This document shows, piece by piece, positions 34,051-34,652 of a stretch of 64,000 nucleotides of DNA; the stretch's first letter is position 1, and each line of letters opens with the position of its first letter. The stretch spans positions 62,001 to 126,000 of the forward strand of contig NW_026919765.1 of assembly GCF_032062105.1 (NCBI RefSeq). Reading direction: 5' to 3'. The stretch comes from Saccostrea cucullata. Its lineage: Eukaryota. The notes beneath the pieces were generated by a model that was not told the DNA's origin, searched no databases, and saw only the letters and a list, made by a program, of their open reading frames with translations. The position numbers and the translations under genes were made by a program.

Positions 34051-34652
34051 AAGGATATGGAAATAACGAACAGTATTCAATCTCAAAGTCCATTAAACAA
34101 ATATAAAAAATAAGAGCAGAGCAAACACGGACCTCCGAAACATCAGAGGTGGGATCAGGTGCCATGGAGGAGTGAGCATCCCCTGCTGACCGGTCACACC
34201 CGCCGTGTGCTCGTTGTCATAATCAGGAAATAACGGGAAAAAAATCCGTGGTCAATTCAGTGTATAAATAATGGACTAACAATTGGTATGAAAAACGTCA
34301 GTCAGCATTTCATTCAATGATAAATTGTATTTGCTGACAAGGTCATTGTATCGACCATAGAATTTACGAAATGATGACTTTAAACGAGACTGTTGATATT
34401 CTTGTTTCATCAACTTGCTTGTCAATAATTTACCTCGTTTAAGAAATTGTTCATACGTAGAGCATGCTCTTGCGTATCGAATCAACTGAGATATAAATAC
34501 TCCGTATGCAGGTGATGAAGGTATATTGCTGCATAAGTAAGGGAAGTTGACGATAGAAAAGTTAAAGTCATCACGTGTATCATATAGCTTGGTTGTTAGA
34601 TTACCATTAGTGTCTTTTTCAAGTAAAATATCCAAGTATGAAGCAGAAGTGT
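34051..34652 (-). mobile_element. 5'-truncated Penelope-like retroelement: RT C-terminus (34276-34652) plus structured 3' module
   Basis: TSASYLDILL..LTTKLYDTRDDFNFSIVNFPYLCSNIPSSPAYGVFISQLIRYARAC is a PLE RT motif-7/thumb region. The ORF stops right after the thumb with no C-terminal GIY-YIG, as expected for Naiad-type (N-terminal EN) or EN-less PLEs. Confidence 0.85.

Follow-up and report, generated by a model that had tools for sequence, protein, structure and literature searches.

The stretch of DNA analysed here (the window) comprises 64,000 nucleotides of contig NW_026919765.1 of Saccostrea cucullata, positions 62,001 to 126,000 of the forward strand. It contains, on the minus strand, the 3' end of a 5'-truncated retrotransposon copy, consisting of a fragment of the C-terminal coding region of a reverse transcriptase (RT) followed by a 3' untranslated region (UTR), or pseudo-LTR (Table 1). 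A 94-nt RNA module, which is the exact minus strand of 34212..34119, begins 64 nt past the stop codon of the RT frame, and an earlier reading made from the letters alone (the sequence-only reading) was right to place it on the sense strand of the element, since that frame runs on the same strand and has its end at 34276. Elsewhere in the window there is a cluster of intronless open reading frames (ORFs) for rhodopsin-family seven-transmembrane (7TM) receptors (3971-5206, 11034-12269, 16359-17630, 19840-21069 and 54554-55510; Pfam was run on four of the five), part of which stems from a 6.5-kb tandem duplication, as well as a C1q-domain ORF (23236-23649) and a 462-aa open frame on the minus strand (60556-61944). 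The plus-strand ORFs of 411-423 aa found beside other module copies are 7TM receptors and are unrelated to the element.

Table 1. Features of the module, of its host element and of related copies; positions are those of the window unless a locus is named
Feature	Position	Strand	Remark
Outer stem P0, 5' strand	34203..34212	-	pairs with 3' strand 34119..34130
Invariant CGGGUG	34197..34202	-	partners CACCYG (S1) or YACY; G 34197 is the predicted -1 position
Palindrome 1, 10 nt	34187..34196	-	predicted inter-copy duplex, pistol P2-like
R-C-A-G	34183..34186	-	C, A, G invariant in 15/15 rows
Pseudoknot S2, 5' strand, GGGAU	34178..34182	-	covariation
G-C-U-Y-A-C-Y	34171..34177	-	YACY able to pair with GGUG
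Palindrome 2, 6-8 nt core	34162..34167	-	before CACCYG
CACCYG, S1 3' strand	34156..34161	-	pairs with CGGGUG
Pseudoknot S2, 3' strand, AUCCC	34151..34155	-	covariation
Terminal hairpin, variable in length and sequence	34131..34150	-	stem of 5-9 bp in 14/15 rows
Outer stem P0, 3' strand	34119..34130	-	covariation
RT C-terminal coding fragment, 5'-truncated Naiad copy	34276..34659	-	stop 34276-34278
3' UTR / pseudo-LTR	34050..34275	-	copies end at about 34050
Older module-core copy	14198..14255	-	duplicate 6626-6683
Older module-core copy	10113..10170	-	covariance model
Older module-core copy	18399..18454	-	covariance model
Decayed copy	9831..9888	-	duplicate 2923-2980
Decayed copy	7231..7288	+	duplicate 15689-15752
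5'-truncated copy, module 3' half only	22057..22122	-	profile search
Twister-like metagenome loci	L087:1957-2031, L099, L118, L119, L123, L128, L147-L150		
Twister-like consensi (at least six)	Mgal, Bpla, Mphi, Scon, Mmer, Movir-1		by eye

Over its residues 23-149 the RT fragment shares 97-98% identity with most of the 150 genome copies listed, some of which have open frames of 1027 aa. In the 1027-aa ORF of a sister copy a GIY-YIG endonuclease domain (residues 159-247) stands N-terminal to RVT_1 (773-878), and a CxC motif, a DKA motif and a CX2-5CxxC finger are present in sister-copy translations. The N-terminal position of GIY-YIG and the CxC and DKA motifs are defining traits of Naiads in the accessible text of Craig et al. 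2021 (PMC8557442), and 5' truncation with partial tandems that make pseudo-LTRs, another Naiad hallmark, is found here as well. The consensus of Naiad_Sglo from that study has a near-identical 3' end, module included, and agrees in domain order and motifs, so the assignment to a Naiad-type Penelope-like element (PLE) made by the sequence-only reading holds, the host element is already known, and the new question is the RNA. The part of PMC8557442 available to us describes no structure for the Naiad_Sglo 3' UTR; it looked only for hammerheads in Naiads and reports no canonical one. Naiads dominate many invertebrate genomes and have been reported without the hammerhead of other PLEs, a lack that was used to argue that PLE ribozymes may be mere passengers. 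The module does not itself form the end of the element: the 3' ends of 59 of 75 copies fall 160-169 nt past the module start, and the module sits 70 nt upstream of these ends.

A profile search of the window recovered 12 module loci (10 strong, 2 weak) and four short tandem fragments, and a covariance model found the module core in nine window copies. Because one segmental duplication holds three copy pairs (2990/9898, 6704/14275 and 7218/15680), about seven of the ten strong matches are independent insertions; with this proviso the earlier count of about ten recurrences was correct, and the pairings quoted for other window copies are present. Window copies are mostly decayed, and their differences are therefore no evidence of selection. 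The 35-nt module core has 3,165 exact matches in the genome, and when another family carrying some other module was sought there, every match inspected (the first 100 of 304, and 34 of 34) proved to be a mutant of the same family.

Metagenome contigs were scanned by RT alignment, and among the best 80 of 403 loci encoding a relative the core covariance model matched 54, two of them away from the RT end and many of them decayed copies from one assembly. A 15-row alignment was built with one representative per family, picked by eye: the window copy, 13 metagenome loci and L191, with L076 left out because of a 3-nt insertion. The rows were chosen by a pattern that required CGGGUG, CAG, GCUNAC and CACCYG, so that part of the invariance of these four follows from the selection itself, which put no constraint on S2, the palindromes, P0 or the hairpin. 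L191 is a 407-nt contig of a bacterial assembly whose positions 135-232 match the tail of Naiad_Pmar, likely animal DNA contamination. Apart from L191, the matches of the pattern in prokaryote (at least 120) and viral (three) contigs were all due to chance and served as a negative control, and no Naiad RT relative was found in the viral contigs. Of the 54 published Naiad consensi, 12 have the module as well: five from bivalves, four from hemichordates, two from the hydrozoan jellyfish Clytia (a cnidarian) and one from a toadfish. This count was made by eye on the last 330-400 nt of 53 consensi and by motif match on the remaining one, and elements with long UTRs could escape it. All 12 keep CAG, GCU, AC and CGGGUG (by eye). 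Gathering genome-wide and cross-species copies under a covariance model, as the sequence-only reading had proposed, yielded a module that is conserved across families.

Across the alignment, S1, palindrome 1, S2 and palindrome 2 are paired in 97.3% of 299 cells, and two-sided changes occur in 56 cells versus 13.7 in shuffled and 3-7 in slid controls, the shuffle ignoring relatedness; core identity among the families compared is 53-90%. The best-covarying helix is the 5-bp S2 (GGGAU/AUCCC), with 73 of 75 cells paired and two-sided changes at all five pairs, and it is fully formed in 17 of the 21 pattern matches from Naiads versus one of the 123 prokaryote and viral matches listed, that one being the Naiad fragment. 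For the first five pairs of P0 all 75 cells are paired, versus a shuffled mean of 55.6, where the 3' register of P0 and of the terminal hairpin had been selected for maximal pairing. S1 is paired in 89 of 90 cells with a single G.U to G-C change and appears in minimum-energy folds, and the GGGUG/YACY helix is paired in 59 of 60 cells with one-sided changes only. For a further 3-bp helix, RGC/GCU, 37 of 41 cells are compatible and no two-sided change is seen. P0, S2, the terminal hairpin and the palindrome covary across families, and the module is real.

Much of what the sequence-only reading had described is found again in this comparison, and its fold has to be redrawn. The outer stem and the last hairpin are present and are supported by compensatory changes across the 15 diverged families; the 10-nt palindrome lies at 34187-34196 and stays self-complementary from family to family; and the two competing partners of GGGUG, CACCYG and YACY, are both conserved and mutually exclusive. 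The claim of a conserved, pseudoknotted RNA is borne out by the covariation of S2, a pairing that had been missed. The bulged hairpin of CAGG/CCUG and UGCU/GGCA, on the other hand, is not supported: neither helix shows a two-sided change, 4 of the 60 cells of CAGG/CCUG and 6 of the 59 of UGCU/GGCA are broken, and the CAGG/CCUG part is excluded by S2. The GGGUG/CACUC pairing, proposed as the pseudoknot, is compatible across families, but with one-sided changes only. One of its examples, a G-C to A-U double change at 14216-14248 and in the duplicate, does keep the pairing, but it is one event seen twice, and the same G-to-A change fits the rival helix CAGGUG/CACCUG equally well.

Folding energy by itself is modest (z of -1.6, with 13 of 200 shuffles doing as well; z of -1.2 to -2.2 per sequence), and the case rests not on it but on covariation across families. 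S2 and the palindrome contain five G.U pairs versus no A.C pair, which points to an RNA of this strand. A site that acts at the DNA level, or a chance by-product of one multi-copy repeat, would agree with these low z values and with the decay of the window copies, but it is already largely refuted by the two-sided changes between families so far diverged, by the G.U pairs without A.C, and by palindrome letters too varied for one DNA-binding protein, and we give it next to no weight.

Palindrome 1 stands at the same position in all 15 rows and in all 12 consensi. All of its 75 cells are paired, with two-sided changes at each of the five pairs, and its central dinucleotide is AU in eight rows, UA in four, CG in two and GC in one, never a non-complementary one. 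A hairpin cannot pair its central two bases, yet their complementarity is kept, and from this we infer pairing with another copy; it is likely that palindrome 1 joins two RNA copies. The calculated energies of -9 to -18 kcal/mol for the duplex versus +2.4 to -1.2 for the hairpin are consistent with this. In most young copies the palindrome ends in G, which gives a terminal U.G pair. Predicted homodimers use the palindrome 1 duplex in 10 of 12 families, which counts for little by itself, as in co-folding a swapped dimer is energetically favourable for any RNA rich in hairpins. Palindrome 2 has a half-length of at least 3 in 14 of 16 rows, which is weak for each single sequence, and appears as seven different hexamers among 11 of the 12 published consensi (by eye).

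Tandem copies put the module about 170 nt before the next ORF, where a compact multi-helix pseudoknot could serve as an internal entry site or a nuclease block. We consider such a role in translation or RNA stability improbable, because it leaves unexplained a palindrome that is complementary through its centre and because 13 of 70 ORF-start loci begin at least 15 nt downstream of the whole module. A SECIS element was also rejected, as there is neither an AUGA/AA/GA kink-turn pattern nor an in-frame UGA in the two ORFs read.

Known self-cleaving classes were compared with the module one by one. The search of Rfam ribozyme models suggested by the sequence-only reading gave no ribozyme or other relevant family for the whole window, for 20 metagenome loci or for the 241-nt region alone. 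The stated lack of a hammerhead core was confirmed in all six block orders, CUGANGA being absent from both strands of the 3' UTR and GAAA occurring on the antisense strand only. A twister was rejected for lack of an L4 pattern on the sense strand, of U^AA and of an Rfam match. HDV-like ribozymes have a 7-bp P1 that starts at G1, a P1.1 and a catalytic C in J4/2, and they were rejected because the helix order of the module leaves no P1.1 or J4/2 and no Rfam match was obtained. With the HDV-like ribozymes of R2 and other retrotransposons the module has in common a nested pseudoknot and G.U in a G-rich helix; it differs in lacking P1.1 as well as a strand with the catalytic C between P4 and P2, and in its location at the 3' end. 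No description of this RNA was found in the literature; subscription journals and bioRxiv supplements lay outside the search and may hold one.

The closest correspondence found is with the active site of the pistol ribozyme, which is formed where P2, P3 and the G33-C41 pair meet next to the pseudoknot, with U(+1) paired to U29 (PMC6795133); position 32 is a purine, G40 forms a triple with G33-C41 (PMC6154101), G33 binds metal and G40 is the base (PMC6154101, PMC6795133, PMC7027511). In the module the palindrome is immediately preceded by GGGUG and is followed, in this order, by (N)RC, A G, the S2 strand, G C, U and YACY; the module thus shares with pistol the order P2, purine and G, pseudoknot strand, G and C, P3 on one strand. 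The counterparts of A32 and G33 would be A 34184 and G 34183, which immediately precede the pseudoknot strand and are invariant in 15 of 15 rows and, by eye, in 12 of 12 consensi; those of G40 and C41 would be G 34177 and C 34176, directly 3' of it. The pair that would match G33-C41 is G-C in all 15 rows, invariant and hence without covariation. In the two-base cleavage junction that pistol has between P3 and P2, G53 (-1) may correspond to the invariant G at 34197, and the pair between +1 and position 29 to that between the first and last palindrome bases, formed in 15 of 15 rows. Counterparts of A32, G33, G40, C41 and G53 thus appear to be grouped around S2, and the terminal hairpin would stack on S2 at the place where P1 stacks in pistol.

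The differences from pistol are considerable. G42 is replaced by an invariant U, followed by one extra pyrimidine before P3; the pseudoknot has five pairs instead of six, and its partner is not in a P1 loop but downstream, flanked by S1 and the terminal hairpin; P2 is a palindrome that has no loop; and the P3-like helix shows one-sided changes only and competes with S1, which the minimum-energy fold uses. Pistol ribozymes carry an A-rich minor-groove strand along P1, and no such conserved run was found in the module alignments. They are known from Firmicutes and phage neighbourhoods, whereas the module belongs to an animal retrotransposon. The downstream shift of the pseudoknot partner would amount to a non-circular block order, as described for hammerheads (PMC10085705, accessible part). 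With G42, P1 and block order mismatched, we call the module pistol-like and do not file it as a member of the class. The mapping was reached after several ribozyme cores had been tried, which lowers its weight, and the few matching letters could be due to chance.

We put at about even the chance that the 3' UTR RNA pairs with a second copy through its palindrome and has a rearranged, pistol-like active site with which it cuts itself. The sequence-only reading had pointed the same way with its candidate RNA that dimerises or cleaves itself in place of the hammerhead. Palindrome 1 would then be a pistol P2 without a loop, so that the full helix could form only between two copies, for example those in the pair of pseudo-LTRs of a tandem transcript, and the GGGUG^N strand of one copy would come to lie beside the A-G-[pseudoknot]-G-C strand of the other. 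G 34183 would hold a metal ion and G 34177 would be the general base, the cut would fall at 34197/34196, some 150 nt short of the element end, and CGGGUG/CACCYG (S1) would be a competing resting fold. As proposed for the hammerheads of other PLEs, the job would be the processing of multimeric or read-through transcripts and not the setting of insertion ends.

Another cleavage site can be read from the same strand. GCUYA and AG match letters of a twister-sister-like loop (G7 C8 U9 C10^A11 and A39 G40; PMC11620745, accessible part), so that an undescribed self-cleaving class or a loop of that type might cut GCUY^A between 34174 and 34173. The GCUYA of the module is the only one in the UTR, and slot and palindrome would have the same logic as in the pistol-like reading. 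However, A12, G36, C37, the second stem and the L4 motif have no match, there is no 5x6 two-stem internal loop, and copy 5' starts are spread over positions 35-47 with no peak at 40 (first 100 of 282 matches, by eye). This reading is weaker than the pistol-like one, and we regard it as rather unlikely. With either site counted, self-cleavage of some kind by the module is predicted with fair probability.

The slot occupied by the module holds other folds in other Naiads. A twister-like fold with its own palindrome was found there in 10 of 80 metagenome loci (the best 80 of 403), and by eye in at least six consensi (Table 1). Its palindrome follows the T1 strand, a second near-palindrome serves as P1, T2 changes from AC/GU to CC/GG, and its partial matches to twister-P1 (E of 2.8 and 0.046) are far below the family cut-off. 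In mussel and clam Naiads it shares with the module the slot, an outer closing stem and a G-rich strand followed by a palindrome, but neither a twister L4 loop nor U^AA is present in the pistol-like module. The module pattern occurs in none of seven twister-type loci, and the two modules were never found together in the UTRs examined. A tree of 126 RT residues is poorly resolved, with twister-type loci in at least three supported groups and module-type loci in an open fork, and no order of module-swap events can be read from it.

Nematode Naiads appear to carry a third fold. Type-CSG hammerheads with all blocks and three stems were recognised by eye at the 3' ends of Naiad-1, -2 and -3_Nbra, Hcon, Hpol and Asuum, several of which are listed as 'core' or 'half core' in the accessible part of PMC8557442. 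Natural hammerheads with this non-circular C-S-G block order are represented by only two examples in the part of PMC10085705 available, and we found none of the nematode Naiad ones in print. In canonical PLEs, dimers are the cleaving form of those hammerheads whose loops are palindromic (PMC6765202); like the module, these type I ribozymes sit in the pseudo-LTR with a palindrome that favours pairing between tandem copies, but they have a CUGANGA/GAAA core, of which the module has none in any block order. Such parallels in the slot make it more probable that the module is a ribozyme cassette, but they do not put the module itself to the test. About evenly poised, in our estimate, is the wider proposal that it represents a eukaryotic, non-circularly permuted, obligate-dimer relative of pistol, or a new self-cleaving class built on that core, found in four animal phyla and numbering thousands of copies in a genome, and that Naiads, which would swap pistol-like, twister-like and type-CSG cassettes, are not ribozyme-less.

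At the start of the next unit, directly after the AC-rich point where copies end, there is a 5' hairpin around CUGCUGGUGGA (L061:2045-2130), which is conserved in bivalve and hemichordate Naiads with either type of module and is a candidate site of RT binding and initiation. Pairing between the module and this conserved 5' motif was considered and dropped, because elements with the other module carry the motif too.

No trace of cleavage was seen in the ends of DNA or RNA copies. Genomic copies with an apparent 5' start at the predicted cut (position 17) number 43, versus 48, 57 and 15 at positions 15, 19 and 20; the 5' ends of 70 ORF-start loci are scattered, with no cut signature; and copy 5' ends were also negative among the first 100 of 352 matches (by eye). 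The module region is transcribed, with reads on both mates, mostly as a passenger in host transcripts. When RNA ends near the module were mapped, as the sequence-only reading had advised, three unstranded poly(A) runs of one study showed no pile-up of molecule ends, and reads of this kind are uninformative on cleavage. In the accessible text of PMC11167929 a PLE hammerhead that cleaves in vitro leaves no reads ending at its cut and is not needed for insertion, and with this precedent the negative end data weigh only lightly.

The same data would suit a non-catalytic signal for dimerisation or packaging, in which the palindromes join two RNAs and the Naiad protein binds the pseudoknot together with its invariant bases, aiding template jumps that give tandem or inverted insertions. 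The module lies 70 nt before the copy ends, no cut signature was seen in DNA or RNA, the putative cut site is concealed within the stable S1 fold, and in PMC11167929 a PLE protein is modelled as a dimer and a PLE hammerhead is dispensable for insertion in vitro. This explanation is a serious but clearly less probable one, perhaps one chance in a few, because Naiads with related RT C-termini swap in an unrelated twister-like fold, because the 5' hairpin common to both bivalve kinds is a better candidate for RT binding, and because in PAc, according to that same text, binding and initiation map to a region downstream of the hammerhead, where the ORF begins.

That the slot of the PLE hammerhead holds an RNA which is conserved and covaries reopens the question of whether PLE ribozymes are passengers, and it can be tested with a 94-nt transcript. 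If the module cleaves as predicted, a ribozyme core described from bacteria would reach animals and gain a rearranged natural form, and palindrome-enforced dimers would have been used repeatedly to sense tandem transcripts. Should no cleavage occur, the module would still be a candidate signal for RNA dimerisation in a retroelement of the non-LTR type.

Two minor observations concern sequences resembling parts of the module. At window positions 6413-6620 a 40-nt piece of the 3' part of one module copy is tandemly amplified, and a similar array lies at G000:C12997:34264-34649. Several green-algal Chlamys consensi (PMC8557442 supplement, accessible part) have CGGGUG, a near-palindromic hairpin and a complementary strand near the 3' end, an arrangement that might be a weak and distant echo of the module.
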